From the NCBI GenBank assembly GCA_035708345.1, contig DASSSR010000009.1, positions 25-64,024 of the forward strand: 64,000 nucleotides of DNA, read 5' to 3'. The DNA is from Gaiellaceae bacterium. GTDB taxonomy: Bacteria > Actinomycetota > Thermoleophilia > Gaiellales > Gaiellaceae. The notes under the pieces are model-generated. The model worked only from the letters and a program-made list of their open reading frames with translations, was not told the origin of the DNA and ran no database searches. This document shows positions 30,609 through 64,000 of this stretch, piece by piece. The first letter of the stretch is position 1. Every line of letters begins with the position of its first letter. The translations under genes and the position numbers were made by a program.

Positions 30609-30611
30609 CGA

Positions 30612-30705
30612 ATCAACTCCCTTCGCCGGTACGAGCCGGATCAGGTTCGACGGGTCTGATCTCAGCCGCGCGTCGGGCGCGGCACCCCGGTAGCAACGAG
30701 CGTAC
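30612..30705 (-). promoter_or_regulatory. TPP (THI-box) riboswitch
   Basis: The minus strand reads CUACCGGGGUGCCGCGCCCGACGCGCGGCUGAGAUCAGACCCGUCGAACCUGAUCCGGCUCGUACCGGCGAAGGGAG. All conserved THI-box blocks are present: GGGGUGC, GCUGAGA, ACCC, GAACCUGAUCCGG, UACCGGCG, AGGGA. The 3' GGGAG doubles as the Shine-Dalgarno 8 nt before AUG 30608. Confidence 0.9.
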
Positions 30706-40703: not shown

Positions 40704-41311
40704 TCGTCGAGCCGGTCGCCGTAGCGCGCGTAGTACACGTGCCCGGACCACATGAAGATCTGCGAGAGCGTCAGCGAGACGAGCCACATCACGCCGACGT
40801 AGGCGAGCCGGTGCGGCAGCCGGAACCAGCGCGGCCCGGGCAGCAGCTCGAGCAGAGCCGCCCAGAGCAGCGCGCCGCACGTGAAGAAGAGCAGGTGCTG
40901 GAGCGCGTGCACCGCGTCGTGGTCGAGCGCCGCGTCGTAGAGCGGCGCGACGTGCCAGAGGCAGATGTCGACGGCCCAGAGCGGCAGCGCGACGAGCGGG
41001 TGCGCGAGCACGCGCAGCGTGCGCACGGGCCGCAGCGCGAGCGCCGGCCGCAGCAGCGGCCCGTTCAGGCCGAGCACGCAGAAGAGCGGCGCGAGGTCGC
41101 CGATCAGCAAATGCTGAGCCATGTGGGCGGAGAAGTAGCGCTCCTCGCCGAGCCGGTCGAGCGGTGAGAGGAAGGCGACGAGCAGCAGGGCGATCCCGGT
41201 AGCGAACGAGACGGCGCGCAGGACGTCGACCGTGCCCCGCCGGCGCCGGACGCGCAGCACCGCCGCGGCGTAGAGCGCCGCCGCGAGCAGGGTGAGCGCG
41301 AGCTGGGACAT
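40538..41311 (-). CDS. ctaG: Cytochrome c oxidase assembly factor CtaG (Bacillus caa3_CtaG type)
   Basis: 257 aa with 6-7 TM segments. The blocks FSAHMAQHLLIGDLAPLF and HALQHLLFF are characteristic. It is divergent from ctaC. Confidence 0.8.
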   Translation of the reverse strand: MSQLALTLLAAALYAAAVLRVRRRRGTVDVLRAVSFATGIALLLVAFLSPLDRLGEERYFSAHMAQHLLIGDLAPLFCVLGLNGPLLRPALALRPVRTLRVLAHPLVALPLWAVDICLWHVAPLYDAALDHDAVHALQHLLFFTCGALLWAALLELLPGPRWFRLPHRLAYVGVMWLVSLTLSQIFMWSGHVYYARYGDRLDDQRVGGGIMLLEGSFVMISLVAWLLWRELQPESSSTASVDQPKSLAPQGVPSSGS

Positions 41312-41364
41312 CGGGGTACGAACCGTTTTACCCGGTCACCCCCGGGTAGCCCGCATCCCGTACC

Positions 41365-42354
41365 GTGAAACAGTCGGGGGACAGGATCCGGGGGGCGCGG
41401 CTCGCCGTGCTGGGCGGCGGAGTCGTCTTCGTCCTCGCCGGCTGCGGCAACGGCCAGAACACGCTCCAGCCGAAGAGCCCGCAGGCCGGCTCGATCGCGA
41501 CGCTCTGGTGGATCATGCTCGGCGTCTCGACGTTCGGGCTCGCCGTGATCGTCGGGATGCTCGTCGTCTCCTGGTTCAAGCGCGGCGGCGTCGGCCGCGA
41601 GCGTCCGGCGACGATCACCGTCCTCGTGCTCGGGATCGCGACGCCGATCCTCGTGATCGCCGCGCTCTTCTCCTACTCCGACATCTTCCTGATCCGCGGC
41701 ACGTCCGCACCGCCGCCGACCTCGCTCGTCGCGAAGCGCGCGCTCGACATCACGGTGATCGGCCATCAGTTCTGGTGGGAGGTGCACTACCCGAAGGGGA
41801 AGGTCGTGACCGCGAACGAGATCCACATCCCGGTGCGCACCCCGGTCGTCGTCTCGGTCACCTCGCGCGACGTCATCCACAGCTTCTGGGTGCCGGAGCT
41901 GAACCGGAAGATGGACCTCGAGCCGGGGCGGACGAACCAGGTCGAGATCTACGCGAGCAAGGTGGGCAAGTACCGCGGCCAGTGCGCCGAGTTCTGCGGG
42001 CTGCAGCACGCGCACATGGCGTTCTACGTCTTCGCCGACCCGCCGCCGGTCTTCGCGCGCTGGCTGAAGCGGGAGGCGAAGCCGGCGACGCGCACGCTGC
42101 CGCTGTTCCAGAGCACGTGCTCGAACTGCCACGCGATCCAGGGGACGCCCGCGAACGCGCACGTCGGCCCCGACCTCACGCACGTCGGCTCCCGCACGAC
42201 GATCGCCGCCGGGACGCTGACGAACACGCTCGCGAACATGGAGCAGTGGATCGCGCACCCGCAGGAGGTCAAGCCGGGTAACCAGATGCCCGACCTGAAG
42301 CTGACCGGCGCGCAGGTCCACGAGCTCGCCGCGTATCTGGAGAGCCTGAAGTGA
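41365..42354 (+). CDS. ctaC: Cytochrome c oxidase subunit II with a fused C-terminal cytochrome c domain (caa3 type). Lipoprotein-like signal.
   Basis: CuA site HSFWVPEL..CAEFCGLQHAHM. C-terminal CSNCH heme-c motif plus GNQMP. Lipobox LAGC. Confidence 0.95.
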   Translation: MKQSGDRIRGARLAVLGGGVVFVLAGCGNGQNTLQPKSPQAGSIATLWWIMLGVSTFGLAVIVGMLVVSWFKRGGVGRERPATITVLVLGIATPILVIAALFSYSDIFLIRGTSAPPPTSLVAKRALDITVIGHQFWWEVHYPKGKVVTANEIHIPVRTPVVVSVTSRDVIHSFWVPELNRKMDLEPGRTNQVEIYASKVGKYRGQCAEFCGLQHAHMAFYVFADPPPVFARWLKREAKPATRTLPLFQSTCSNCHAIQGTPANAHVGPDLTHVGSRTTIAAGTLTNTLANMEQWIAHPQEVKPGNQMPDLKLTGAQVHELAAYLESLK

Positions 42355-42421
42355 GCGTAGGCTCGACGGAGCTCACCAGAGAGCGGAGGCGTCAGCTTCG
42401 CCGGCGCCGGGAGCGGGTCAC

Positions 42422-44317
42422 GTGAGCACGACGACCGTCACCGAGCGCGTCGACCGGCTCGACCGGATGTGGACCGCGCGGCCGGGCCTGCTCGGCTGGC
42501 TGACGACGACCGACCACAAGCGGATCGGGCTGCTCTACTTCTGGACGACGCTCGTCTTCTTCGGCGCCGGCGGCGTCGAGGCGCTGACGATGCGCACGCA
42601 GCTGATCGAGCCGAACAGCCACCTCGTCGGCCCGGAGCTCTACAACCAGCTGTTCACCGTGCACGGGATGACGATGATCTTCTGGTTCATCATCCCGATG
42701 ACGACCGGGGCGTTCGGGAACTACCTCGTCCCGTTGATGGTGGGCGCGCGGGATCTCGCCTTCCCGCGGCTGAACGCGCTCAGCTTCTGGATCTTCGTCG
42801 CGTCCGGGATCTTCCTCTACATCGGCCTCTTCAGCGGCTTCGGGCCCGACGCCGGCTGGTTCGACTACGTCCCGCTCGCGTCGAAGCTGTACGACCCCGG
42901 CCGGAACATCGAGTTCTACACGCTCGCGGTGATCTTCAACGGCATGTCGTCGACGCTGACGGCGGCGAACCTGATCGTGACGATCCTGAAGCTGCGCGCG
43001 CCCGGGATGTCGTTCAACCGGATGCCGCTCTTCTGCTTCGCGTTCCTCGCGGCGTCGCTCGGCCTCCTGTTCGCGCTGCCGTCGCTGACGGCCGACACGA
43101 TCTTCCTCTACCTCGACCGCAACGTCGGCACGCACTTCTTCGACCCGTCGCACGGAGGGTCGACGCTGCTCTGGCAGCACCTCTTCTGGTTCTTCGGCCA
43201 TCCGGAGGTGTACATCCTCATCGTCCCTGCGTTCGGGATCGCGACGGAGATCATCCCTGCGTTCACGCAGCGCAAGATGATCGCCTTCCCGCTCGTCGCG
43301 ATCGCCGAGCTGCTCGTCGTCTTCATCGGCTTCGGCGTCTGGGCGCACCACATGTTCGCGACGGGCATCCCGACGACGACGCTGATCTTCTTCGCGGGCG
43401 CGACGGCGATGGTGGTGATCCCGTCGACGATCCAGGTGTTCGCGTGGTCGACGTCGATCCTCGTCGGCCGACCGCAGTTCAAGACGCCGCTGCTGTTCAT
43501 CGTCGGCTTCATCTTCATGTTCGTCGTCGGCGGCCTGACCGGGATCATGTTCCTGGCGATCCCGTTCGACCAGCAGACGACGGACACGTACTTCGTGATC
43601 GCCCACTTCCACTACATCATCTTCGGAGCCGCCGTCTTCCCGATCTTCGGCGGCATGTACTACTGGTTCCCGAAGGTCACCGGGAAGCTGTACTTCGAGC
43701 TGCCGGGGCAGATCTCGTTCTGGATCCTGATGGTCGGGACGAACCTGCTCTTCTTCCCGATGCACATCGTCGGGCTGCTCGGGATGCCGCGCCGGGTCTA
43801 CACGTACCCGGCGAACATGGGCTGGGGCAGCTACAACCTGGCCGAGACGATCGGCGGCTACATCACGGGGATCGGGATCCTCGTGCTGTTCGCGAACCTC
43901 GTCGTCTCGTACTTCCGCGGCGCGCCCGCCGGGCCCGACCCGTGGCACGGGCCGACGCTCGAGTGGAGCATCCCGTCGCCGCCGCCCGAGTACAACTTCG
44001 CCGTCCTCCCGGTCGTCTCGAGCCCGTACCCGAACTGGGACCACGACGACCGCGAGCTGGACGGGCGGCGCCTCGAGGCGGGCGAAGGCCTCCTCGACCA
44101 GGGCCACCAGCAGCGCGTGTCGGCGCTGATCGACGGCTGGCGCGTCGGCATCGCGGACATGCCGCACTCGTCGCCGTGGCCGATCGTCTCCGCGTTCGTG
44201 CTGACGCTGATGTTCACCGTCCTCGTCGTCGAGAAGTTCGTCGTCGCTGCGTTCCTCGCGATCGTGCTGCTGGCGACATTCCTCGGCTGGCATTCGAAGG
44301 AGCCGCAGGAGCATTGA
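42422..44317 (+). CDS. ctaD: Cytochrome c oxidase subunit I
   Basis: 631 aa with the canonical blocks WFFGHPEVYILI, GFGVWAHHMF and HFHY. Confidence 0.97.
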   Translation: MSTTTVTERVDRLDRMWTARPGLLGWLTTTDHKRIGLLYFWTTLVFFGAGGVEALTMRTQLIEPNSHLVGPELYNQLFTVHGMTMIFWFIIPMTTGAFGNYLVPLMVGARDLAFPRLNALSFWIFVASGIFLYIGLFSGFGPDAGWFDYVPLASKLYDPGRNIEFYTLAVIFNGMSSTLTAANLIVTILKLRAPGMSFNRMPLFCFAFLAASLGLLFALPSLTADTIFLYLDRNVGTHFFDPSHGGSTLLWQHLFWFFGHPEVYILIVPAFGIATEIIPAFTQRKMIAFPLVAIAELLVVFIGFGVWAHHMFATGIPTTTLIFFAGATAMVVIPSTIQVFAWSTSILVGRPQFKTPLLFIVGFIFMFVVGGLTGIMFLAIPFDQQTTDTYFVIAHFHYIIFGAAVFPIFGGMYYWFPKVTGKLYFELPGQISFWILMVGTNLLFFPMHIVGLLGMPRRVYTYPANMGWGSYNLAETIGGYITGIGILVLFANLVVSYFRGAPAGPDPWHGPTLEWSIPSPPPEYNFAVLPVVSSPYPNWDHDDRELDGRRLEAGEGLLDQGHQQRVSALIDGWRVGIADMPHSSPWPIVSAFVLTLMFTVLVVEKFVVAAFLAIVLLATFLGWHSKEPQEH

Positions 44318-45281: not shown

Positions 45282-46030
45282 GGCCGATCGTCGCCCTGCT
45301 CGCCGCCGCGCTCGTGCTCGCGCTGCCCGCGTCCGCCGCGAACGTGCAGCACGGCAAGCAGCTCTTCGGCGAGTACTGCGTCTCGTGCCACGGGCCGAAC
45401 GCGGAGGGGTCGCTCGGCCAGCGCTACGGCGGCGGCAAGGGCCGCGACAACCAGATCCTCACCGGGCTCGCGCCGAGCCTGCACGGCGTCGGCGCGCTCG
45501 CCGCCGACTTCTACCTGACGACCGGCTACATGCCGCTGCGGCGCAACGGGATCCAGCCGCGGCGCTCGAGCCTCATCTTCGGCCGGCGCGACATCGCCGA
45601 CCTGACCGCGTACATCGCCTCGCTCGGCAAGGGCCCGGCGATCCCGAAGCCCGACCCGGCGAAGGGCAACCTCGCCGAGGGCATGCACCTGTTCACCGAC
45701 CACTGCGCCGGCTGCCACCAGGTCGTCGCGGAGGGCGGCTTCGTCACCGGCGCCGTGCCGCCACCGCTCGAGGACGACTCGTCGACGCAGATCGCCGAGG
45801 CGGTGCGGATCGGCCCCTACGTGATGCCGAAGTTCACGAAGAAGGCGATCAGCGACGCACAGCTGAACTCGATCATCGCCTACGTCCAGTACGCGAAGCA
45901 CCCGGACGACCGCGGCGGCTGGTCGCTCGGCCACATCGGCCCCGTCCCGGAGGGGCTCGTCGCCTGGTTCATCGCCGCGGCCGCGCTCGTCGCCGTCTGC
46001 ATGGTGATCGGAAAGAGGCTGCGTGGCTAG
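45278..46030 (+). CDS. qcrC: Diheme cytochrome c subunit of the bc1 complex
   Basis: Two heme-c motifs, CVSCH and CAGCH. Signal peptide and C-terminal TM anchor are present. Confidence 0.9.
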   Translation: MRPIVALLAAALVLALPASAANVQHGKQLFGEYCVSCHGPNAEGSLGQRYGGGKGRDNQILTGLAPSLHGVGALAADFYLTTGYMPLRRNGIQPRRSSLIFGRRDIADLTAYIASLGKGPAIPKPDPAKGNLAEGMHLFTDHCAGCHQVVAEGGFVTGAVPPPLEDDSSTQIAEAVRIGPYVMPKFTKKAISDAQLNSIIAYVQYAKHPDDRGGWSLGHIGPVPEGLVAWFIAAAALVAVCMVIGKRLRG

Positions 46031-47018
46031 AGCGAAGGACCTGCTGCTCTCCGGGCTCGTGCTCGTCGTCTCGCGCGGGCGGCGCAAGCCGCGCAAGAGC
46101 GCGCTGCGGACGGTCCCCGACTACGGCCCGAACCCCGGCGCCGAGACGGCGGCGATCGTGCTCCTCTTCCTCTCCGCGCTGTGCGGCGCCGCCTTCGTCG
46201 GCGTCTACGCCGTCGACCGGATCCCCGACCAGACGCAGTACCTCGGGCTCTCGATGGGGCTCTGCTGCGGCTTCCTCGCGGCGGCGCTGATCGTCACGGC
46301 GCTGAAGCTCGTCGTGACCGAGGAGATCGCCGAGGAGTACCCGCCGAACGAGCATCCGCACGAGCAGGCGCTGATCGCCGAGGTCGTGGAGGAGTCCGCG
46401 AGCCGGCTGACGCGGGCGCGCCTCTTCAAGCTCGGCCTCGCGGCCGCGGGCGGCGGCCTCACCGCCGCGGCGCTGACGCCCGCCGTCTCGTTCGGCCCCT
46501 TCCTGCGGATCAAGTACTTCTTCGGCACTCCCTGGCGCGCCGGCCGCCGGCTCGTGGACGAGAACGGCCGTCCCTGGAAGGCGTCCGACATCGAGGAGAA
46601 GAACTTCTACACCGCCTTCCCCGAGGACGATCCCGACCTCGAGGCGATCGGCGCGCCGCTCGTCGTGATCCGGCTGCCGAAGTCGGCTCTGCGCCTGCCG
46701 CCGGAGGTGCACGGCTACGACGCGGACGGGATCCTCGCGTTCTCGAAGATCTGCACGCACGCGGGCTGCGCGATCTCGCTCTACCGCGCGCCGCTCTTCG
46801 AGGCGACCGACCCGCACCCGGCGCTCGTCTGCCCGTGCCACTACTCGACCTTCGACCCCTCCACGGGCGGCCAGGTGATCTTCGGGCCGGCGCCGCGGCC
46901 GCTGCCGATGCTGCCGCTGATGATCGACAGGAAGGGCTACCTGCGCGCGCGCGGCAACTTCGACGCGGCGCTCGGGCCGTCGTGGTGGGGCGTCCGGAAC
47001 AGGAAGCCGAGCTCGTGA
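46023..47018 (+). CDS. qcrA: Rieske 2Fe-2S subunit of the bc1 complex
   Basis: CTHAGC...CPCHYSTF Rieske boxes and three N-terminal TM segments, as in actinobacterial QcrA. Confidence 0.9.
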   Translation: MARAKDLLLSGLVLVVSRGRRKPRKSALRTVPDYGPNPGAETAAIVLLFLSALCGAAFVGVYAVDRIPDQTQYLGLSMGLCCGFLAAALIVTALKLVVTEEIAEEYPPNEHPHEQALIAEVVEESASRLTRARLFKLGLAAAGGGLTAAALTPAVSFGPFLRIKYFFGTPWRAGRRLVDENGRPWKASDIEEKNFYTAFPEDDPDLEAIGAPLVVIRLPKSALRLPPEVHGYDADGILAFSKICTHAGCAISLYRAPLFEATDPHPALVCPCHYSTFDPSTGGQVIFGPAPRPLPMLPLMIDRKGYLRARGNFDAALGPSWWGVRNRKPSS

Positions 47019-48406
47019 GCCTGACGCGGAGGGCGGTCAGGTTCGTCGACCAGCGGAGCGCGAGCGCGCCGCTGCTGCGCAAGGTCGCGCGGTACCTCTT
47101 CCCGGACCACTGGTCGTTCCTGCTCGGCGAGGTCGCGCTCTACGCGTTCATGGTCCTCGTCGCGACGGGGATCTATCTGACGTTCTTCTTCGTCGACTCG
47201 ACGAAGGACACGGTCTACCACGGCCCGTACGTGCCGCTCCAGGGCCAGCACATGTCCGAGGCCTACAAGTCGGTGGTCGACATCTCGATGACGGTGAAGG
47301 CGGGCCTGCTGATCCGCCAGACGCACCACTGGGCGGCCGACGTCTTCGTCGCGGCGATCATCCTGCACCTCTTCCGCGTCTTCTTCACGGGCGCGTTCCG
47401 CAAGCCGCGCGGGCTGACGTGGATGTTCGGCGTGACGATGCTCATGCTGACGCTGCTCGAGGCGTACATGGGCTACTCGATGGTCGACGACCTGCTCTCG
47501 GGGATGGGGCTCGTGATCGGCTACTCGGTCGGGATGTCGATCCCCTTCATCGGCGCGAACCTGATGGAGTGGCTGTTCAAGGGGCCCTTCCCCGGGCAGC
47601 ACGCGTTCTGGCCGCGCATGTACATCGCGCACGTCCTGATCTTCCCGGTGCTGATCGGAATGCTGCTCTCCGTGCACCTGCTGCTCGTCGCGATGCGGCA
47701 TCACACGCAGTTCAAGCGGATGCGGGCGCAGAGCAACCACACGATCGTCGGCGTGCCGATGTACCCGGGACAGGCGCCGCGCTCGCTCGGGCTGCTCTTC
47801 GCCGTCGTCGCGATGCTCTTCCTGCTCGGGGGGCTCGTGCAGATCAACCCGATCTGGCTGTGGGGGCCGTACCACACGTACTCCTCGACGAACGGCGCGC
47901 AGCCGGACTGGTATCTCGGCTGGCTGATCGGCGGCCTGCGGCTGATGCCCGGCTTCGACGTCGTGATCGGCAAGTACACGCTCGTCCCGAACCCGTTCTG
48001 GGGCGGCGCCGCCTTCCCGATGATCGTCTTCGGGTTTCTCTACTTCTGGCCGTGGCTGGAGCGGCGGATCACCGGCGACCTGGGCTTCCACAACCTCGCG
48101 CAGCGCCCGCGCGACAACCCGATGCGCACCGGCGTCGGCGTCTGGATGATCACGTGGGTGCTGATCGTGTTCATCGCGGGCTCGTCCGACCGCGTCGAGG
48201 TGCTCTTCGACATCCCCTACGTGGGCCAGATCTGGTTCTACCGCTTCTTCAACCTCTTCTTCCCGATCGTCGCCGGCTTCGTCGCCTGGTGGGTCTGCAG
48301 GCAGCTGCAGAAGGGCGAGCCGGTCGAGGAGGATCGCCACAGGGCGGAGGCGGAAGCTAGGCTCGCCGCATGGTCGTCCGCACGGAGGCAGAGCTCCGAG
48401 ACCTGA
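47015..48406 (+). CDS. qcrB: Cytochrome b subunit of the bc1 complex
   Basis: GTG 47015 (GTGA overlap). The blocks FPDHWSFLLGEVALYAF.. and RQTHHWAADVFVAAIILHLFRVFFTGAFRKPR are typical actinobacterial QcrB. Confidence 0.95.
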   Translation: MSLTRRAVRFVDQRSASAPLLRKVARYLFPDHWSFLLGEVALYAFMVLVATGIYLTFFFVDSTKDTVYHGPYVPLQGQHMSEAYKSVVDISMTVKAGLLIRQTHHWAADVFVAAIILHLFRVFFTGAFRKPRGLTWMFGVTMLMLTLLEAYMGYSMVDDLLSGMGLVIGYSVGMSIPFIGANLMEWLFKGPFPGQHAFWPRMYIAHVLIFPVLIGMLLSVHLLLVAMRHHTQFKRMRAQSNHTIVGVPMYPGQAPRSLGLLFAVVAMLFLLGGLVQINPIWLWGPYHTYSSTNGAQPDWYLGWLIGGLRLMPGFDVVIGKYTLVPNPFWGGAAFPMIVFGFLYFWPWLERRITGDLGFHNLAQRPRDNPMRTGVGVWMITWVLIVFIAGSSDRVEVLFDIPYVGQIWFYRFFNLFFPIVAGFVAWWVCRQLQKGEPVEEDRHRAEAEARLAAWSSARRQSSET

Positions 48407-48987
48407 TCGGCTCGCCGAACGAGCTCGTGCAGGCGAAGGTCGCCGACCGATTGAACGAGCTGTCGCGGCGGTGGATCGAGCGCTCGCCGTTCGTGTGCGT
48501 CGCGACGGCGCGGCCGGACGGCGGACTGGACGTCTCGCCGCGCGGCGACCCGCCCGGCTTCGTGCGCGTCCTCGACGAGCGGACGCTGCTGCTGCCCGAG
48601 CGGCCCGGCAACAAGCTCGCCGACACGCTGACGAACCTGCTCGGCGACCCGCGGATCGCCCTGCTCTTCCTCGTGCCGGGCATCGGCGACACGTTCCGCG
48701 TCAACGGCCGCGCCCGGCTCGTCGACGACGCGGAGCTGCTGGAGCCGTGCGCGGTCGAGGGCAAGGTGCCGAGGCTCGGCATCCTCGTCGAGGTCGAGCA
48801 GGCGTACACGCAGTGCCCGAAGGCGCTGCTGCGCTCGGAGCTCTGGAACCCGGAGAAGCACGCCGACCCGTCCGAGCTGCCGAAGGCGTCGGAGATCCTC
48901 AAGGCGGTCGGCGCGCCCGAGCTCGACGTCGCCGAGTACGAGCGCGCGCGGGCCGGCCGCTACGCCCGCCGCGAAGGCTTCTACTAG
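48370..48987 (+). CDS. PPOX-class (pyridoxamine-5'-phosphate-oxidase-like) FMN/F420-binding flavoprotein
   Basis: 205 aa with SPFVCVATARPDGGLDVSPRGDPPGFV...PERPGNKLADTL..IALLFLVPGIGDTFRVNGRA. It overlaps the qcrB 3' end by 37 nt. Confidence 0.8.
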   Translation: MVVRTEAELRDLIGSPNELVQAKVADRLNELSRRWIERSPFVCVATARPDGGLDVSPRGDPPGFVRVLDERTLLLPERPGNKLADTLTNLLGDPRIALLFLVPGIGDTFRVNGRARLVDDAELLEPCAVEGKVPRLGILVEVEQAYTQCPKALLRSELWNPEKHADPSELPKASEILKAVGAPELDVAEYERARAGRYARREGFY

Positions 48988-49015: not shown

Positions 49016-49161
49016 GGCCGGTACTACTTACCGTCACGAAACCGTCAAAAAGAGGCGGCTGCCGCGCGTGCAGGCATTTCGTCGTCGGCGGTGACGGTGT
49101 CGTGACGAAGCGGCGAGGGTTCCGTTTGCGTACTACGTACCCGCAGGAGAGCGTCACGCGT
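49016..49161. repeat. Copy A of a tandemly duplicated ~146-nt structured element (unclassified)
   Basis: About 92% identical to 49204..49350. The core 49063..49135 is 73/73 identical to 49252..49324. Confidence 0.9.
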
Positions 49162-49203
49162 CGCCGGGCCGGAGGGCGCGGGGCTCGTACGAGCCGGCCA
49201 TAC

Positions 49204-49350
49204 GGCCGGTACTAAAGTACCGTCACGGAACCGTCACGGAGCGGCGGCTGTCGCGCGTGCAGGCATTTCGTCGTCGGCGGTGACGGTGTCGTGACGAAGC
49301 GGCGAGGGTTCCGTTTGCGTACTAGGTACCCGCCGGAGAGGGTCACGCGT
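49204..49350. repeat. Copy B of the same element. Its last 8 nt are the final codons and stop of the CMD-family gene.
   Basis: See copy A. The offset between copies is 188-189 nt. Confidence 0.9.
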
Positions 49351-49900
49351 AGCCGAGCTCGAAGAACCGCCCCTCGTGGGCGATCGCCTGCTCCCGGGTC
49401 AGGCCCTGCTCCGAGTGCGGCTTCGCGCCGAGCGTGTCGGCGTAGCGCGTGATCAGGTCGAAGGCCGCCTTCACCTCGACCGCCTCGCGCAGCGCCTCGC
49501 GCGTCACGCCCGCGGCGAGCGCGCGCGACGGGTCGAGCGTCGCGAGGAAGTGCAGCGTCCCGCGCAGCCGTTCGTCGACCGGCGCCGTCTCGTAGTCGCG
49601 CAGCACCCCGTCCACGAGCTCTGCGTCACCGAAGGCGTACGACGCGACCGCGCCGTGGGCCTCCGTTCAGAACGGACACTGGTTCTGCGCGGACACGAAG
49701 GCGGCGAAGAGCTCCCGCTCCGCCTCGCTCCACGCGGAGGGGCCCTTCATGATCTCCTGCATCAGCGCCCCGAACGGGCGTCCGAAGAGCTCCGGCCGGT
49801 AGCGCAGCGCGACCGAGATGTCCGAGACGTAGCCGTCGCGCTCGCGTAGCTCCGCGATCTGCGCGGCGGCGCTCGGGTCATGACGCAGCTCGAGCCTCAC
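49343..49900 (-). CDS. AhpD/carboxymuconolactone-decarboxylase (CMD)-family peroxidase-related protein with an in-frame TGA at the second active-site Cys position. Candidate selenoprotein (C-P-F-U-T-E-A-H).
   Basis: Track ORFs 49667..49900 and 49343..49615 are in the same frame. The read-through translation ..AFVSAQNQCPF[TGA]TEAHGAVASYAFGDAELVDGVLRDYE.. recreates the family motif CxxCxxxH. A hairpin follows the TGA. Confidence 0.7.
49639..49656 (-). promoter_or_regulatory. SECIS-like hairpin 10 nt downstream of the in-frame UGA
   Basis: ACGGCGC-GGUC-GCGUCGU forms a 7-bp stem (one G-U pair) with a GGUC apical loop. Confidence 0.45.
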
Positions 49901-50154
49901 GCGAGCGCCGCCAAAGCGCGTCGCCGCTCCGCCAGCGCGACGCCGAGCGCCGCCGCGAGCGCCGCCTCGACCACCACGTCGGCCTCGAGCCCGGCGACGT
50001 CCGCGTCGACGATCCGGTACGCGTGCCGCCGCACCTTCTCGAGCAGCGGCGCCAGCTCGGGCGGGTCGTCCCCCGCGAAGATCGCGCAGCGCTGCAGAGG
50101 CGTCAGCACTCCGGCGCCGCCGAGCGTCGCCTCACAGACCCCCTGCCAGCCCAC
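49897..50154 (-). CDS. Small hypothetical protein translationally coupled (GTGA) to the CMD-family gene
   Basis: 85-aa ORF whose stop overlaps GTG 49900. No motif was recognised. Confidence 0.45.
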   Translation of the reverse strand: MGWQGVCEATLGGAGVLTPLQRCAIFAGDDPPELAPLLEKVRRHAYRIVDADVAGLEADVVVEAALAAALGVALAERRRALAALA

Positions 50155-50209: not shown

Positions 50210-52383
50210 ATGACCGGCCTCGACCCGATCGAGGCAGTCGTCGAGGCGCGCCGGGGACGCCGGCGCCGGGGGAAGCGTCCGCGGCGGCTGCTGCTCCTGA
50301 CCCTCCTGCTCGTCGTCGGCTCGGCGGTGGTCGTCGCGGCCGCCGCGGGCGGCGCGCGCTGGTATCTCTCCCGCTGCACGCTCGACGGGCGCACGGCGGC
50401 CCCGCTCGGCCGCACCTCCGTCGTCTACGCCGCCGACGGGACGTACCTCGGCGCGATCCACGCGGACACCTATCGCCGCGTCGTCCCGGACTCGAGGATC
50501 TCTCCCTGGCTGAAGAAGGCGACGGTCGCGATCGAGGACCGCCGCTTCTGGACGAACCCGGGCGTCGACTACCGCGGCCTCGCGCGCGCGGCCGTGCAGG
50601 ACGTGCTCGCCGGTCACATCGTCCAGGGCGGCTCGACGATCACGCAGCAGCTCGTGCGCAGCATGTACCTCGACGACTCGCGCACCTTCGCGCGAAAGCG
50701 GCTCGAAGCGTGCCTCGCGCTGAAGCTGACGCGGCGCTGGCCGAAGGAGCGGATCCTGACGACCTACCTGAACCGGGCGCCCTACGGCCACCGCGCGTAC
50801 GGCGTCGAGGCGGCCGCGTGGACGTACTTCGACCGTCCCGCCGCGAAGCTCGGGCCTGCGCAGGCGGCGCTGATCGCCGGGCTGCCGCAGGCGCCGTCGC
50901 GCTACGACCCGCTCGTCCATCCCGCGCAGGCGCTCGCGCGGCGCAACGAGGTGCTGCGGGCGCTCGTCGGCGCCGGCGCGCTGACCCGGGCGCGCTACCG
51001 GCGACTCGTCGCGCGGCCGCTCGGCCTGCACCCGGGCCGCGTCTACACGCTCCGCCGCGCGCCGACGTTCTTCTCGTACGTTCGCAGCGAACTGGTGCGC
51101 GTCTACGGCGAGCAGCGCGTGCGACAGGGCGGCCTCCGCGTCTACACGACGCTCGTCCCACGCGACCAGCGCGCCGCGCGCAGCGCGATCCGCTCGGTGC
51201 TGAACCGGAAGCACGACCCGGCCGGCGCGGTCGCGTCCGTCGACCCGCGCACGGGGGCGATCCGGGCGCTCGTCGGCGTCGTGCACGGCAGGCGGCTCGA
51301 CTTCGACCTCGCCGTCTCGGGCCGCCGGCAGGCAGGCTCCGCGTTCAAGACGTTCGTGCTGGCGGCCGCGATCGCGCGCGGCGCGAATCCCTACTCGACG
51401 AAGTACCTGTCGGCGCCGTTCTCCGTCGCGCTGGCGAACGGGACGACCTGGAGGCCGCACACCTACGAGAACGCGTTCTTCGGCGTCGAGAACCTCGTGC
51501 GGGCGACGCTCCTCTCCGACAACGTCGTCTACGCGAAGCTGACGCTCGACGTCGGCGCGCAGCACGTCGCGCAGATGGCGCACCGCCTCGGCGTGCGCTC
51601 GCCGCTCGACCCGGTCGCCTCGATCGGCCTCGGCGCGGACGCCGTCTCGCCGCTCGACATGGCGTCCGCGTACGCGACGCTCGCCGCCGGCGGCGTCTAC
51701 CGCGCACCGCACGCGATCCGCAAGGTCGTGCTCCCGGACGGGGCGGTCGACACGAGCCACCGCTGGACGGCGCCGCCGAAGCACGCCGTCCCGCGCAACG
51801 TCGCCTACTGGGTGACGCGCGTCCTGCAGGCGAACGTCGAGCGCGGCACCGGCACGGCGGCCCGGCTGCCGCGTCGCGCCGTCGCGGGCAAGACCGGCAC
51901 GACGAGCGACTGGACGGACGGCTGGTTCGTCGGCTACACGCGCCGCCTCGCCGCGGCGGCATGGGTCGGCTACCCGCACCGAACGGTGCCGATGACGGAC
52001 GTGCACGGCATCCACGTCACCGGCGGCAGCCTCCCGGCGCAGATCTGGGCGCGCTACGCGAAGGCGTCGCTCCGCGGCAAGCCCGCCGCCGGCTGGCTGC
52101 AGCCGCTGCGGCCGATGCGCTGGCGGCCGTGGCACGGCGAGCGCCGCTACGTTCCGCGCAGGCCGAAGGCGAAGCCGGGCAGCTACGTGCTCGTGCTGAG
52201 CTCGTTCCGGCCGACGCACCTGCACGAGGCCCAGAGCCGCGCGCACGCGATCGGTGCGAAGGTCACGCGCTCCGGCCGGATTCCGGGCCTGCGGCCGGGC
52301 TGGGTCGTCGTCTACGCCGGCCCGTTCGCGACCGAGAGCGCCGCGCGGGCCGCGCGCGACCGCTTCGCCCGCGGCATCGTCCG

Positions 52384-52387
<4 letters not shown>
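50210..52387 (+). CDS. Class A penicillin-binding protein (GT51 transglycosylase plus transpeptidase) with a C-terminal SPOR domain
   Basis: GT51 block [30 protein letters not shown]. Transpeptidase motifs SAFK, SDN and KTGTT. SPOR-like tail YVLVLSSFR...[19 protein letters not shown]. Confidence 0.95.
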
Positions 52388-55101
<2,714 letters not shown>

Positions 55102-55109
55102 AGCTCGAT

Positions 55110-55892
55110 TCAAGCAGAAGCTTCGCCGTTGCCCGCGCGCCCTTGGGTGAAGCGGTTCAGCGTGATCAGCCCCATCCCGCCGAGCATGTTCCCGGCGGCG
55201 GCGAGGGCGAAGTTGCCGACGATGAACGCCCAGTCGAACCGGGCGCCGAAGCGGTAGCCGAAGATCAGCTCGATCGTGTCCACGATCACGTGGTCGAACT
55301 GGCCGAGGACGATGATCGCGCCGACGATCCACGCGACGACGATCCGGACGAGGACCGACTCCTGGCCCTCGACGAACCAGGTCATCGCCGTGATCAGGGC
55401 CCCTGCGAAGACGGCGCTGACGAAGAGGGCGAGCACGCCGTTCGCGTGGATCCGCTCGGAGGCGTGGACGAGCGCGGCGCCGGAGCCGTACGGGAGCACG
55501 CTGTGCACCGTCAGCAGCAGGACGACGACCAGCCCGCCGAGGATGTTGAAGAGCGGTGAGACCGTCCAGAGCTTCAGCAGCTTCCTCCACGCGCCGCCGT
55601 GCTCCTCGACGCCGGCGAGCGGGACGAGGAAGTTCTCGGTGAAGAGCTCGCCCCGCCCGATGACGAGGAAGACGAACGAGACGCCGAAGCCCGCCGAGGC
55701 GACGACGTGCGCGGCGTCGCCGCCGAGCGCGTGCTGGAGCTGCGATTGCAGCAGCGCGAACACGGCGAGCCCCGCGACGATGTCGAAGCCGGCGGCGAGC
55801 GCGGTCGACATCTCCTCGAGGAAGGGGCGCTCGAGCCGGCGCCTGCCCTCCTCCTTCGTGCGCGCGTAGATCTCCTCCGGCGTCGGCGCCAC
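55110..55892 (-). CDS. Formate/nitrite transporter (FNT) family channel
   Basis: 260 aa with 6 TM segments and the signature [12 protein letters not shown]. Confidence 0.85.
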
Positions 55893-58904: not shown

Positions 58905-59846
58905 TCAGGCGCCGCGGCCGGCCGGTGCGGCGGGCTCGCCGGGGAAGGTGGTCGCCTTCGAGCCGCCGTTGCGGTCCGCGCGCTCGCGCTGCGGCTTCAC
59001 CGTGTACTTCGGGTCCCGTGCCGACTGGACGCCGGCCTTGAACACCGCCCAGCGGAGGCAGAGCTCGCCGGCGCAGACCATCGCGCCGCCGAGCGTCGCC
59101 GCGGCGCGGCTCCTGCGGCCCTTCGTCGCGAGCAGCGCGGCGCCGCCGCCCGCCAGCACCTTCGCGGCGAGCGAGAACTTCCCGGCGGCGCCCTGGTGGT
59201 AGACCTCGCCGACCTCGCCGAGCCGGAGCTCCATCGCGTGCACGAGCGTGCCCTCGGCGATCACGCCGCCGATCGCGAGCCGCCGCGCCGGGCCGGCGTC
59301 GCCGGGGTCCATGAACATGGTCGAGGCGGCGCCGGCGCTCGCCGTCGCGCTCGCGCCGAAGAGCCACGGCAGCTCGTGCCGTCCCTCGTGCCACGCCGGC
59401 ACCGCCGTGTCGGCGACGAGCACGCCCGTGTACGTCGCGAGCGGCGGGCCGAAGAAGGTCGCGACGAGCTCGGCGAGCAGCTTGACCGGCTTGAGGATCC
59501 CGAGCAGCTCGAGCACGGCGGCGGTGTTGGAGGCGCCGCCGTTGACGAGCAGCACCCAGGCGCCGACGTTCATCGGCGACGTCACCTTGAAGACGCGCAG
59601 CATGTGGTGGAAGCGCTCCGGCCGGCCGAGGTCGGAGATCAGCAGCAGCGGCGAGACCGCGTCGAACGCCGCGCCGATGTAGAGCGCGCGCTTCGACAGC
59701 TTCTCGTTCCCGAACAGCTTCGCCGACAGCGACAGCACCGACGACGCCCCGGAGACGCCGCCCGTGAAGAAGTACGTCGGGATCTCCCACGTCCACACCG
59801 GCTCCTTGATCACGGGCCGGCCGTAGTACGACCGCACCTCGCTCAC
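58905..59846 (-). CDS. NrfD/PsrC-type integral membrane (quinone-interacting) subunit of the formate dehydrogenase complex
   Basis: 313 aa from GTG 59846 (GTGA overlap with the Fe-S subunit). The N-terminus YYGRPVIKEPVWTWEIPTYFFTGG is the NrfD-family signature. Confidence 0.85.
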   Translation of the reverse strand: MSEVRSYYGRPVIKEPVWTWEIPTYFFTGGVSGASSVLSLSAKLFGNEKLSKRALYIGAAFDAVSPLLLISDLGRPERFHHMLRVFKVTSPMNVGAWVLLVNGGASNTAAVLELLGILKPVKLLAELVATFFGPPLATYTGVLVADTAVPAWHEGRHELPWLFGASATASAGAASTMFMDPGDAGPARRLAIGGVIAEGTLVHAMELRLGEVGEVYHQGAAGKFSLAAKVLAGGGAALLATKGRRSRAAATLGGAMVCAGELCLRWAVFKAGVQSARDPKYTVKPQRERADRNGGSKATTFPGEPAAPAGRGA

Positions 59847-60823
59847 CTGCGTCCTCCGAGCGCGACGACGCCGACGACGCCGACCATCAACGCGGCGGCG
59901 GCCGTCGCCATGTTCAGCCACATCTCGCCGAGCTTCGCCGTCGGCACGACCGGGTCGGGCGGGAGGCCGTACACCTCCGGGTCGTCGAGCAGCAGGAAGA
60001 AGGCGCCGAAGCCGCCGACGCCGTCGTCGGGGTTGCGGCCGTACAGCTGCGCGCCGTTCCAGCCCTCCGACTCGAGCTTCGCGAGCCGAGCGTCGGCGCG
60101 CTGCCGCAGCTCCTCGAGCGGGCCGAACTGGATCGACTTCGTCGGGCACGCCTTCGCGCACGCGGGCTCGTGGCCGCCGCGCAGCCGGTCGTAGCAGAGC
60201 GTGCACTTCCAGACGCGCCCGTCCTTCTGTTTCCCGAGGAACGACGGCAGGTCGGGCTTGTAGCCGGAGTCCTGCGTCGACGGGATCTCGCGCTTGTCGA
60301 GCACCCCGAACGGGCACGCGGGCACGCAGTAGCCGCAGCCGTTGCAGATGTCCGCCTGGATGACGACGGTGCCGAACTCGGTGCGGAAGAGCGAGCCGGT
60401 GGGGCAGACGTCGAGGCAGCCCGCGTGCGTGCAGTGCTTGCAGACGTCCGACTCCATCAGCCAGCGCAGGCCCGTCCCGCCGTCGCCGTTCCCAGTCGCC
60501 GAAGGCGACGGTTTTCCGCCGGGCGCCGACGGCTCTGCCGTCGGCGCTTCCAGCGTCCTGTACAGCGGCTTCTCCTGCTCGACGAAGGCGACGTGCCGCC
60601 AGGTGTTCGCGTCGAGCTCGCCGGTGTTGTCGTACGAGTGCCCCGTCCACTCCTGGCCGTCCTGCGGGATCAGGTTCCACTCCTTGCACGCGACCTCGCA
60701 CGCCTTGCAGCCGATGCACACCGACGTGTCGGTGAAGAAGCCGACGCGCTCGTGCTTGTCGTCGCCGTACGCCTCCCAGCCGGCCGGCTCGCCGGTCGGC
60801 TGCATCGGCAAGACGGCGCTCAT
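59843..60823 (-). CDS. Formate dehydrogenase iron-sulfur (4x[4Fe-4S]) subunit with a C-terminal TM anchor
   Basis: Ferredoxin motifs CIGCKACEVACKEWN, CKHCTHAGCLDVCP, CNGCGYCVPACP and CTLCYDR..AC..ACP. Confidence 0.9.
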   Translation of the reverse strand: MSAVLPMQPTGEPAGWEAYGDDKHERVGFFTDTSVCIGCKACEVACKEWNLIPQDGQEWTGHSYDNTGELDANTWRHVAFVEQEKPLYRTLEAPTAEPSAPGGKPSPSATGNGDGGTGLRWLMESDVCKHCTHAGCLDVCPTGSLFRTEFGTVVIQADICNGCGYCVPACPFGVLDKREIPSTQDSGYKPDLPSFLGKQKDGRVWKCTLCYDRLRGGHEPACAKACPTKSIQFGPLEELRQRADARLAKLESEGWNGAQLYGRNPDDGVGGFGAFFLLLDDPEVYGLPPDPVVPTAKLGEMWLNMATAAAALMVGVVGVVALGGRR

Positions 60824-60887
60824 GCCCGCTCCCGGCGCCGGCCGAGCCGGCGCCTCCGCTCTCTGATGAGCTCCGTCGAGCCTACGC

Positions 60888-63800
60888 TCATGTCTGCCGC
60901 ACCTCTTCGGGCTCCGTGCGCTCCTCGGTCGCGTACGAGCGCAGCTCCTCGACGAACCGCTCGTACGCCTTCCCGCGCGGGCGGCGGCCGGGGCGGATCC
61001 CGCACGTCGACGCCTTCGTCTCCATGATGTGCACGTTCGGGTCGAGCGCCGCGTGGATCAGGTCGTTCGCGCTGTCGCCCGACGTGAGCAGGCGCACCCC
61101 CCAGTGGTACGGCAGGCCGACCTGGTGGACGGTGCGGCCGCGCACGACGACCGGCGGGATCCGGTTCGTCACGAGCACGCGTGCCTCGATCGCCGCGCGC
61201 GTCGTGTAGATCGTCGCCCAGCCGCCGTGCTCGAGGCCCTCGAGCCCGGCGAGCTCGGGCGAGACTTCGCAGAACATCTGCGGCTGCAGCTCCGCGAGAT
61301 ACGGGACGGAGCGCGTCATGCCGCCGGCCGTGTGATGCTCGGTCAGGCGGTACGTCGTGACGACGTGCGGGAAGCGCTCCGCGCCGGGCTCGCCGGCGAT
61401 CGGGTTGTACGGGTCCCACCAGGCGTCCTTGTGCTGCTGGCGGCGCGGGTTCGCGCGCTGCGAGTAGAGCGGGTTGTCGAACGGCGACTCGTGCGGCTCG
61501 TAGTGCGTCGGCAGCGGCCCGTCCTCGAGACCCTGCGGGACGAACAGCCAGGAGCGGCCGTCCGACTGCATGATGAACGGGTGGTCGCCGGCGATCGCGT
61601 CGGGGCCCTCGGCGTCGTCGGGCGGCACGTAGTCCGGCGGCTTCGTCTCGTCGAAGTCGGGCGTGTCGACGCCCTGCCACTGCTCCTGCTCGCCGTCCCA
61701 CCAGACGTACTTCTTGCGCTCGGACCACGGCTTGCCGTCGGGGTCGGCGGAGGCGCGGTTGTAGATGATGTGCCGGTTCGCCGGCCACGCCCACGCCCAC
61801 TCCGGGGCGACGTACGTGTCCTGCTCCCAGTGCGCCTTCTTGCGCGCCGCCTGGTTGATCCCGTCCGCGTAGACGCCTGAGTAGATCCAGCAGCCGCACG
61901 CGGTCGAGCCGTCCTTCGTCAGCTCCTTGTAGCTCGACAGCGGCTCGCGCGTCTTCGTCTTGTAGCCGCTGATCTCCTTCAGGATCGCGTCCGCGCTCGG
62001 CTCCTCGATCTGCGCGTGCACCGGGTAGTCCCAGTTGAGGAGGTTGACGAGCTTGTCGCGCTCCTCCTCGGAGTCCTGCAGCATCGACTTGATCCGCTTG
62101 CCGAGGTGGAAGTAGAACCAGAGCTCCGAGCGGCAGTCCTCCTTCGGCTCGACCGCCTGGAAGTGCCACTGCAGCAGCCGCTGCGTGTTCGTGAAGGAGC
62201 CGTCCTTCTCCGTGTGCGACGCGGCCGGCATGAAGAAGACCTCCGTCGCGATCTCGTCGGTCTTCAGCTCGCCCGACTCGATCTCGGGGCTGTCGTACCA
62301 GAACGACGCCGACTCGATCTCGACGACGTCGCGCACGACGAGCCAGTCGAGCTTCGCGAGCGCGAGCCGGTGCGCCTTGCCGTTCGCGTTCCCGACGGCC
62401 GGGTTCTCGCCGGCGATGATGTAGCCCTTGACGTTGCCCTCGAGCATCTGCTCGAGCGTCCAGTAGACGGAGTTGTCCTGGTCGATGCGCGGCAGGTGCT
62501 CGAACAGCCACTCGTTCTCCTCGGTGGCGTTCGGGCCGAAGTACGCGCACATCAGGCTGACCCAGTACTCCTCGAAGTTCCCCCACCAGCCGGTCGGCGC
62601 GACGTTCGCCTGGACGTAGTTGTCGAAGCTGCCGTACTCCTCCGTGTGCGGCATCGGCAGGTAGCCGGGGAGGATGTTGTAGAGCGTCGGGATGTCGGTC
62701 GAGCCCTGGATGGACGCGTGCCCGCGCAGCGCCATGATCCCGCCGCCCGGCCGGCCGATGTTCCCCAGCAGCTGCTGCACGATCGCGCAGGTGCGGATGA
62801 TCTGGACGCCGACGGTGTGCTGCGTCCAGCCGACGGCGTAGCAGAACGCACTCGTGCGCTCGCGGCCGGAGTTCTGCGCGAGCGCCTCGGCGACGTAGAC
62901 GAAGTCGTCGACCGAGACGCCGCACGTGTCGGCGACGAACTCCGGCGTGTAGCGCGCGTAGTGGCGCTTGAGGATCTGGAAGACGCAGCGCGGATGGGCG
63001 AGGTCGGGGTCCTCGGACGGCGGCTCGCCGTGCGAGAGGCCGCCGCCGTGGCCGCCGTGGCCGGACTGCTCGCCCTTCGCCGAGTAGCCCTCCTCGCGCT
63101 GGCCCGCGGCGCCGTGCGTCTCCATCCCCTCGTACGCCCACGTCGTCGTGTCGTACTCGCCCTGCTCGGGGTCCCAGCCGGAGAAGAGCCCGTCGCCGTC
63201 CTCCGTGTCGGCGAACGCCTCGTCGATGATCACCGGCGCGTTCGTGTAGTGCTTGACGTACTCCTCGAAGTAGAGGTCGTTCTGCAGCAGGTAGTTGACG
63301 ATCCCGCCGAGGAAGGCGATGTCGGTGCCGGCGCGGATGCCGACCCACTTCGTCGCCATCGCGCTCGTGCGCGTGAAGCGCGGGTCGACGTGGATCACCT
63401 TCGCTCCCCGCTCGCGCGCCTCCATCACCCACTGGAAGCCGACCGGGTGGTTCTCGGCCATGTTCGAGCCCATAATCACGATGCAGTCGGAGTTCTGCAG
63501 GTCCTGCTGGAACGTCGTCGCACCGCCTCGCCCGAACGAGGTCCCCAGACTGGGGACCGTGGAGCTGTGTCATATGCGCGCCTGGTTCTCGACCTGCACG
63601 ACGCCGAGCGCGGTGAAGAGCTTCTTCATCACGTAGTTCTCTTCATTGTCCAGCGTCGCCCCGCCGAGGTTGCCGATCGCGAGCGTGCGGTTCGCCGGCG
63701 CGCCGTCTCCCGTCTTCTCCTGCCAGGTCTCGGCGCGCTTGTCGACGACGCGCTTCGCGATCATGTCCATCGCGTCCTCGAGCGACAGCTCCTCCCACTG

Positions 63801-64000
63801 CGTCCCGTACGGGCGCCGGTACTTGACCTTGTACTCCCGCAACGGGCTCGCCGCGTAGCTCCTGGACGCCTGCCCCTTCGGGCAGAGCCGGCCGCGGGAA
63901 ACTGGGCTCGCCGGGTCGCCCTCGATGTGCGTGACCTCGCCGTCCTTCACGTAGACGAGCTGCGCGCAACCGACCGCGCAGTAGGGGCAGATCGACTGGA
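60888..64000 (-). CDS. Formate dehydrogenase catalytic (molybdopterin) subunit. It contains selenocysteine (in-frame TGA at 63572..63570). The 5' end lies beyond the window.
   Basis: Track ORFs 60888..63479 and 63570..63950 are in the same frame. The read-through ..VQVENQARI[TGA]HSSTVPSLGTSFGRGGATTFQQDLQNSDCIVIMGSNMAENHP matches the FdnG/FdoG Sec site (ARxUH). Upstream, ..SICPYCAVGCAQLVYVKDGE.. is the N-terminal Fe-S motif and continues to position 64000. Confidence 0.92.
63540..63558 (-). promoter_or_regulatory. SECIS hairpin 11 nt downstream of the formate dehydrogenase UGA
   Basis: GGUCCCC-AGUCU-GGGGACC forms a perfect 7-bp stem with a 5-nt loop containing G and U. Confidence 0.6.

Follow-up and report, generated by a model that had tools for sequence, protein, structure and literature searches.

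We examined a 64,000-nucleotide (nt) stretch of the genome of a Gaiellaceae bacterium (GenBank assembly GCA_035708345.1, contig DASSSR010000009.1, positions 25 to 64,024 of the forward strand), referred to below as the window. On its minus strand lies a gene for a peroxidase-related protein of the AhpD-like family whose reading frame is interrupted by a single TGA, directly downstream of a small gene to which it is coupled. A first-pass annotation had proposed that this TGA specifies selenocysteine (Sec) in place of the second active-site cysteine and that the hairpin just past it resembles a bacterial Sec insertion sequence (SECIS) element. The features at issue are listed here, with coordinates counted from the first position of the window.

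49343..49900, minus strand: AhpD-like gene (peroxidase-related, CMD-fold) with a predicted Sec residue; 185 codons from a GTG start at 49900, closed by its own stop codon, TGA, at 49345..49343.
49667..49669, minus strand: UGA, putative Sec codon, residue 78, at the second Cys position of C75-P-F-U78-T-E-A-H82; assigned from the alignment with Cys forms and from conservation of the TGA.
49630..49665, minus strand: SECIS-type hairpin within the coding sequence (CDS); assigned from folding and comparative evidence.
49897..50154, minus strand: gene for the 85-amino-acid (aa) partner, sharing a GTGA stop/start overlap (49900..49897) with the AhpD-like gene.
63570..63572, minus strand: Sec codon of an FdnG-type formate dehydrogenase catalytic subunit, assigned from the flanking domains.

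The AhpD-like gene is listed as two open reading frames (ORFs) in the same frame, and all of the coordinates given for them in the first-pass annotation were found. The first ORF (49900..49667, minus strand) has a GTG start and encodes 77 aa ending in ..AQNQCPF, after which comes the TGA at 49669..49667. The frame then stays open for 107 more codons (49666..49343, minus strand) to the TGA at 49345..49343. Within this extension the second listed ORF (49615..49343, minus strand) begins at GTG 49615, in frame with the first and 17 sense codons past its TGA. Translation of 49900..49343 yielded the 185-residue read-through product that had been predicted, with the TGA at 49669..49667 as the sole interruption, located in the motif ..NQ-C-P-F-[TGA]-T-E-A-H... 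The start of the first ORF matches that of the homologs, both having an MRL.. N-terminus. The 107 codons 3' of the TGA carry a full coding signature, with a G+C content at third codon positions (GC3) of 0.97, and the protein sequence there is conserved. The upstream 85-aa ORF, 50154..49897, ends GCGTGAGG, so that the GTGA overlap described earlier is present as well.

The family of the gene product was examined with the read-through translation carrying Cys in place of the stop. This protein scored above threshold against both the Pfam CMD model PF02627 (35.3 bits, cutoff 23) and the NCBIfam model TIGR00778, ahpD_dom (33.2 bits, cutoff 27.8). The best full-length model was TIGR01926, 'peroxidase-related enzyme', at 60.7 bits (E 1.5e-16, model positions 16-176 of 178); the same model was the top NCBIfam match for all 17 aligned AhpD-like members, with a best E of 3.5e-28. 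A profile of the family matched the PDB entries 6k40, 3c1l, 2oyo, 2pfx and 2prr over ~120-150 residues with E values from 4e-30 to 1e-22, and the CxxCxxxH motif is aligned in all five. These entries, of which 6k40 is from Deinococcus radiodurans, are the nearest solved relatives by sequence and are described as 'uncharacterized peroxidase-related protein' or AhpD. They differ from the window protein in that all are Cys forms, with no small partner subunit described for any of them. For COG2128, TIGR01926 and these PDB relatives served as proxies.

Residues C75, H82, R62 and E63 are invariant in the alignment with 17 database homologs. E63 sits 12 residues ahead of C75, the same spacing as in the AhpD of Mycobacterium tuberculosis, giving the constellation E63-x11-C75-x-x-U78-x-x-x-H82. 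The catalytic residues of M. tuberculosis AhpD are Glu118, Cys130, His132, Cys133 and His137 (PMC3141380). Since E63, C75 and H82 align with Glu118, Cys130 and His137, the TGA is equivalent to Cys133. The two proteins share the E-x11-C-x-x-(C/U)-x-x-x-H constellation, the all-helical CMD fold and an expected thiol-based redox function. On the other hand, their sequence similarity is distant only (TIGR00777, ahpD, E 0.16), the position of His132 is occupied by Phe in the window protein, and the ORFs annotated in the window include no identified AhpC. Cys133 of M. tuberculosis AhpD is the residue that attacks AhpC. By this correspondence, Sec78 would be the nucleophile.

Among database proteins, Cys forms with at most 48% identity read CPFC, CEFC or CQFC ...H, and their Cys aligns exactly with the TGA. 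This alignment bears out the earlier proposal that the TGA stands for the second Cys of CxxCxxxH. To survey the codon itself, we assembled 162 loci with 169 sites, made up of the top 80 loci from species-representative genomes, the top 80 from metagenomes and two look-ups. The query for this search carried Cys at the site of the TGA, so the search was unbiased towards TGA. All 169 homologous sites had TGA, and none had TAA, TAG or a sense codon, over a range of protein identity from 84% down to ~44%. The contigs are labelled mostly as Gaiellaceae, Gaiellales or Thermoleophilia, with some Ktedonobacteraceae/Chloroflexota and Gemmatimonadota and one Phycisphaerae, and thus span four phyla. The frame remained open for at least 100 codons past the TGA at 160 of the 169 sites. 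Tandem paralogs of the AhpD-like gene, both with the TGA, were seen at seven loci (L032, L033, L121, L123, L127, L128 and L165). One copy in a Gaiellaceae metagenome-assembled genome (MAG; L016:6232-6243) has an extra TAG two codons past the conserved TGA (F*L*AH), which probably marks a pseudogene or a misassembly.

The gene had been expected to be split or truncated by standard annotation pipelines, and such calls were indeed common among its close database relatives. Many end precisely at ..NQCPF or start right after the TGA, and several show 'CPFW'. For two Joint Genome Institute (JGI) proteins whose DNA was retrieved (L001:590-1117 and L002:53-646; proteins P0001, P0003 and similar), the W corresponds to an in-frame stop, which is TGA in the DNA. 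Presumably the 'CPFW' calls from JGI came from a translation table with TGA as Trp being applied to short contigs. Other gene callers produced out-of-frame fusions with neighbours, for example with aconitase (P0032).

The RNA immediately past the UGA can fold into a hairpin spanning 49665..49630. Starting 4 nt past the UGA, it consists of a lower stem of 7 base pairs (bp; 49665..49659 with 49636..49630), a 2x2 internal loop, an upper stem of 7 bp (49656..49650 with 49645..49639) and an apical GGUC loop (49649..49646). The first-pass annotation had placed a 7-bp hairpin with a GGUC loop at 49656..49639, 10 nt past the TGA. Its coordinates, spacing and loop were correct (ACGGCGC-GGUC-GCGUCGU), but its extent was not, since this stem-loop is the upper part of the longer two-stem hairpin. 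An 18-nt core, CAC GGC GCG GUC GCG UCG, is nearly invariant among homologs, wobble positions included. In 165 unique homologous segments, codons +4 to +9 (His-Gly-Ala-Val-Ala-Ser) were CAC in 162/165, GGC in 158/158, GCG in 160/165, GUC in 160/165, GCG in 165/165 and UCG in 140/146. The third-position entropy of these codons was 0-0.3 bits, compared with 1.1-1.8 bits in flanking four-fold-degenerate codons. Such a freeze of synonymous positions indicates selection at the RNA level beyond that on the peptide.

Base pairing was analyzed in an ungapped alignment of 150 distinct sequences. Under the two-stem model 86% of cells were paired, compared with 33-53% when the partners were slid by 1-3 columns. 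None of 500 shuffles reached the observed covariation score, a result to be treated with caution because the sequences are related. Pair 17-28 changes from G-U to C-G in 6 sequences, and this requires the joint replacement of Gly by Ala and of Ser by Ala (HGAVAS to HAAVAA). Pair 21-24, formed by the first and last bases of the loop, changes jointly from G..C to A..U in 5 sequences and is unpaired in none, while pair 8-37 occurs both as A-U (56 sequences) and as G-C (45). G22 and U23 in the apical loop are invariant in the 150 aligned sequences, and 153 sequences have GGUC as the loop, whereas 5 have AGUU. For the nine sequences with HGAVATV, the 7-bp upper stem is possible only with a bulged A. 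Of 158 unique homologs, 119 had the upper stem-loop in their minimum free energy (MFE) fold, and the hairpin is missing from two distant Cys forms (Mycobacterium marinum L163, and L169).

Bacterial SECIS elements known to be recognised by SelB include those of Escherichia coli fdhF and Moorella fdhA; SelB contacts the fdhF element at G23 and U24 of its apical loop, GGUC. The window hairpin resembles bacterial SECIS elements in being an in-ORF hairpin directly 3' of the UGA, with a GGUC loop and its invariant GU ~18-20 nt past the UGA, and differs from them in a core whose primary sequence is unusually invariant across phyla. Bacterial SECIS elements are characterized as stem-loops just 3' of the UGA with a small apical loop and a conserved guanosine (PMC1088965); the hairpin at 49665..49630 lies inside the ORF and has both the small loop and the conserved G. 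A search of Rfam with gathering and E-value thresholds gave no SECIS match and only spurious matches to miRNA hairpins. The near absence of synonymous variation over 18 nt, the compensatory changes and the invariant GU of the loop uphold the earlier description of the hairpin as SECIS-like. The TGA at 169/169 sites, the conservation of synonymous sites and the covariation together place the comparative evidence far beyond chance. These results support the proposition that the hairpin behaves as a bacterial SECIS element, and binding of SelB to it is predicted.

We next considered how UGA is read in this organism. Exactly two in-frame TGA codons in the whole window have strong coding signal on both sides, 49669..49667 and 63572..63570. 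The latter lies in an FdnG-type formate dehydrogenase region (59843-63998, minus strand), where the catalytic gene is cut off by the end of the window and the gene for a 4Fe-4S subunit (59843..61057) follows. The site reads ..ENQARI-TGA(63572..63570)-HSSTVPSLGTSFGRGGAT.., or ..ENQARI-U-HSSTVPSLG.. when the codon is written as Sec. A Molybdop_Fe4S4 domain lies ahead of the codon, and Molybdopterin and Molydop_binding domains lie past it. A hairpin, GGUCCCCA-GUC-UGGGGACC, begins 14 nt past this UGA and has a GUC loop, at a distance from the codon similar to that in the AhpD-like gene. The Sec codon of formate dehydrogenase cited in the first-pass annotation is thus real, and the organism has at least one classical selenoprotein. 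It is on this codon that the statement that the organism decodes UGA as Sec was judged sound.

A reading of the UGA by means other than Sec is very unlikely. The codon could be a sense codon for Trp or Gly, as in genetic codes 4 and 25, or it could be read by a near-cognate tRNA (Trp, Cys or Arg) with help from the hairpin. Some gene calls show W at this codon (P0001, P0003), stable downstream structures can promote read-through, and the ORFs annotated in the window showed no sel genes. However, TGA is the stop codon of 19 of 30 Pfam-confirmed ORFs in the window, including the AhpD-like gene and its partner, and it is therefore not a general sense codon here. Moreover, the aligned residue in homologs is Cys and never a TGG-coded Trp. 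The hairpin also shows features specific to Sec, namely its position just past the UGA and a small loop with an invariant G-U, by the criteria in PMC1088965. Finally, the classical FdnG Sec site is in the same window, and CxxU proteins of the AhpD-like type are an accepted selenoprotein family.

It is very unlikely that the gene is genuinely split, with the UGA acting as a terminator and the 77-aa N-terminal fragment assembling non-covalently with a C-terminal fragment started separately from GTG 49615 or elsewhere. An ORF with a GTG start does exist 17 codons past the TGA, and the partner gene indicates that the family tolerates division and re-fusion. Nevertheless, a split would remove the catalytic residue and cut the active-site helix (C-x-x-|-x-x-x-H). 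It would also leave untranslated 17 conserved codons (TEAHGAVASYAF..) that form the most conserved part of the gene. In addition, there is no conserved internal start, and the calls on relatives begin at differing places. Near-cognate decoding and a split gene alike accord badly with the Sec-specific features of the RNA and with a codon located within the active-site helix. As for a pseudogene or a sequencing error, in which the TGA would be a nonsense mutation or a miscall of a former Cys codon, TGC or TGT is only one substitution away and broken copies such as that in L016 exist, but TGA at every homologous site in different assemblies and phyla, the coding signature and protein conservation of the 107 codons past it and the selection on the RNA hairpin make this extremely improbable.

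Several observations weigh against reading the UGA as Sec, or limit what can be drawn from the hairpin. The hairpin has an MFE of -23.7 kcal/mol, and in this DNA of 73% G+C its single-sequence energy is just modestly better than that of shuffled sequences (z = -2.2; 4 of 200 dinucleotide shuffles fold as well). The covariation counts come largely from related sequences and not from independent events. The lower stem is loosely conserved, with pairs 9-36 and 10-35 unpaired in about half of the sequences. Two closer Cys forms (L167:1001-1582 and L168:1001-1558) retain a weakened hairpin, for example CAC AGC GCA GUU GCG UCG, and Cys forms show partial conservation of the peptide HGAVAS itself. 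Because of these two observations, some of the nucleotide conservation is attributed to constraint on the protein; the weakened hairpin may be a fossil of a recent switch between Sec and Cys, or it may partly reflect peptide constraint. Pfam searches on ~37 ORFs, a partial cover of the 64-kilobase (kb) window, revealed none of selA, selB or selD; no tRNA-Sec (selC) was seen, and the only tRNA in the window is for Arg. The TIGR01926 score of 60.7 bits falls below the curated cutoff of 81.8; judged by sequence and by the NCBI threshold, the protein belongs to a diverged sister clade and is not a strict TIGR01926 member. With these points taken into account, we still consider it highly probable from the comparative sequence evidence that the in-frame UGA at 49669..49667 encodes Sec in an AhpD-type active site, where the insertion of Sec itself is what we infer.

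The small upstream gene is a recurrent companion of the AhpD-like gene. At 127 of 168 related sites, the AhpD-like gene is directly preceded by a partner homolog on the same strand, and the sites with no detected partner are mostly contig ends, second tandem copies or too-diverged cases. The Cys-form operon of M. marinum contains a homologous gene of 103 aa (39% identity, E 7e-11) which overlaps the AhpD-like gene by 4 nt. A small unnamed gene also lies upstream at three other Cys-form loci. Since the partner is found beside Cys forms as well, the pairing must date back at least to the divergence of these lineages into Sec and Cys forms. In one Gaiellaceae MAG (L165:2665-3961), an aconitase gene is directly followed by a first Sec-AhpD copy fused in frame to the partner and then by a second Sec-AhpD copy; the TGA is present in both copies, and the C-terminal partner fusion was verified on the DNA. 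Among protein calls, P0011, P0014 and P0015 carry a fused partner, and at least some of these are probably read-through gene calls. A scripted classification of the related loci returned no fused-partner loci, although such protein calls exist.

More than 3,600 database entries belong to the partner family, of which all are 'hypothetical' and none has a Pfam domain, and a Pfam search with the partner, its mycobacterial homolog and the fused homologs gave no match. We compared the partner with the AhpD-like family in three ways. Alignment of the two profiles with hhalign gave a probability of 82% (E 1e-5), with a gap of ~38 residues at the CxxU..H segment. This alignment was made without P0015; the 99.7% obtained when P0015 was included was discarded, since P0015 is a natural fusion that carries the partner. 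TIGR01926 was matched by 11 of 24 partner members (best E 7.6e-6). The AlphaFold 2 (AF2) model of the partner has a predicted local distance difference test score (pLDDT) of 95, and its six best Foldseek matches are to 2oyo, 6k40 and 2prr, with query-normalized TM-scores (TMq) of 0.61-0.71, probabilities of 0.66-0.98 and E values of 0.3-1.8. A PDB sequence search with the partner profile found nothing significant, and two sub-threshold matches lay where expected, at the C-terminal helices of 6k40 and 2oyo. The three signals of homology to the AhpD fold are concordant but individually weak, and this tells against the assignment. On the sequence comparisons and the structural model, the partner is probably a truncated AhpD-like paralog without an active site, and we predict that it is probably a non-catalytic subunit or adaptor that associates with the selenoprotein.

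A pair of adjacent CMD-domain and AhpD-domain genes is represented by the NCBIfam models TIGR04029 (CMD_Avi_7170) and TIGR04030 (perox_Avi_7169), the adjacency being judged from their consecutive locus tags. TIGR04030 was weakly matched by 17 of 17 AhpD-like members and TIGR04029 by 5. However, the scores are far under the cutoffs (24 versus 233 bits), and for TIGR04029 a single one of 24 partner members gave a marginal match (E 0.036). The likeness to this pair is an analogy only.

We propose that the locus would constitute a two-gene redox unit in which the downstream gene encodes a CMD-fold selenoprotein from the AhpD-like, peroxidase-related branch. The UGA at 49669..49667 would be read as Sec instead of stop. 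In this model, the hairpin at 49665..49630 would present its apical G-GU-C loop ~18 nt past the UGA and recruit SelB-GTP-Sec-tRNA(Sec), and the same Sec system would also serve the formate dehydrogenase codon in the window. With regard to redox chemistry and physiological substrate, the product would cycle between a selenol/thiol pair and a selenenylsulfide and would be an oxidoreductase of the thiol(selenol)-dependent type, for example one that reduces hydroperoxides or a peroxiredoxin. Such cycling appears most likely because the AhpD catalytic constellation of E63, C75, U78 and H82 is present. The 85-aa gene would be translationally coupled through the GTGA overlap, and its product would join the selenoprotein as a non-catalytic subunit or adaptor. 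More tentatively, Sec-AhpD and its small paralog might form an obligate, coupled two-subunit selenoenzyme with the partner in a structural or adaptor role, making up a distinct and undescribed subfamily abundant in soil Gaiellales; we regard this extension as doubtful at present. The near-identical SECIS core on contigs of four phyla could reflect the horizontal spread of a cassette among Sec-decoding bacteria.

The surroundings of the gene pair contain additional features, listed here.

49029-49188 and 49218-49377: two copies of a tandem 160-nt unit (88% identity, 189-nt period), between a convergent PNPOx-like gene (48370..48987, plus strand) and the Sec-AhpD gene.
30601-30699, minus strand: thiamine pyrophosphate (TPP) riboswitch, RF00059, 67.8 bits, above the gathering threshold.
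40538-44317: caa3-type cytochrome c oxidase genes (CtaG assembly factor, COX2 with a cytochrome c domain, COX1).
46008-47018: Rieske protein.

The tandem element had been reported 3' of the AhpD-like gene and is present there. Its copy at 49218-49377 takes in the final ~35 nt of the Sec-AhpD CDS together with the stop codon, and each copy contains a long hairpin. It matched no Rfam family, and no further copy occurs in the window. We considered the element as part of the selenoprotein unit and rejected this, since none of 160 related loci has it 3' of the gene. Instead, the element seems to have arisen recently by local duplication of the 3' end of the gene and the terminator region. An aconitase gene (~52384..55590, minus strand) lies near the pair in the window as well, with a PBP1-type gene (50210..52387, plus strand) in between. 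The caa3-type oxidase genes and the Rieske protein point to an aerobic lifestyle for this Sec-using organism of 72.7% G+C.

AhpD-like selenoproteins have been catalogued previously, as the first-pass annotation had stated (PMC1088965, PMC2398784, PMC13188914). In 2005, 27 sequences in the Sargasso Sea metagenome defined a new selenoprotein family of AhpD-like proteins with the CxxU motif (COG2128; PMC1088965), and AhpD-like selenoproteins were found in genomes in 2006 (PMC1794560). In the Global Ocean Sampling (GOS) data, AhpD-like 1, with 299 sequences, was among the most abundant families, and AhpD-like 2 (pfam02627), with 70 sequences, was commoner in non-marine samples (PMC2398784). The family appears in a later selenoproteome survey (PMC9312934) and in a 2026 review which gives TIGR01926 as its model (PMC13188914). 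The window protein shares with the family (COG2128 YciW-type / TIGR01926) its fold, the CxxU motif with Sec at the second Cys, a SECIS element directly 3' with a small G-containing loop, and widespread Cys-form homologs. It differs in that its clade is diverged and found mainly in soil Gaiellales/Thermoleophilia, whereas the literature examples are marine or from Firmicutes, and in that the Sec form is universal in the 160 loci closest to the window protein. The available portions of the literature on AhpD-like selenoproteins contain no mention of an upstream partner gene, and we found no literature on Sec use in Gaiellales.

The window gene is a diverged addition to a selenoprotein family known since 2005, and the current understanding of selenoproteins is unchanged by it. 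What the analysis does correct is a systematic annotation error, in that the inspected relatives, on soil metagenome contigs and in a Gaiellaceae MAG, are split, truncated or given a spurious Trp. Because these gene calls are wrong, redox capacity and selenium use are under-counted in an abundant and poorly studied soil lineage. The 160-locus set also offers an unusually clean natural case of a SECIS element constraining the choice of codons and even, as in the change from HGAVAS to HAAVAA, that of amino acids. Lastly, the conserved partner gene provides a lead to the function of the 'peroxidase-related' AhpD-like proteins.

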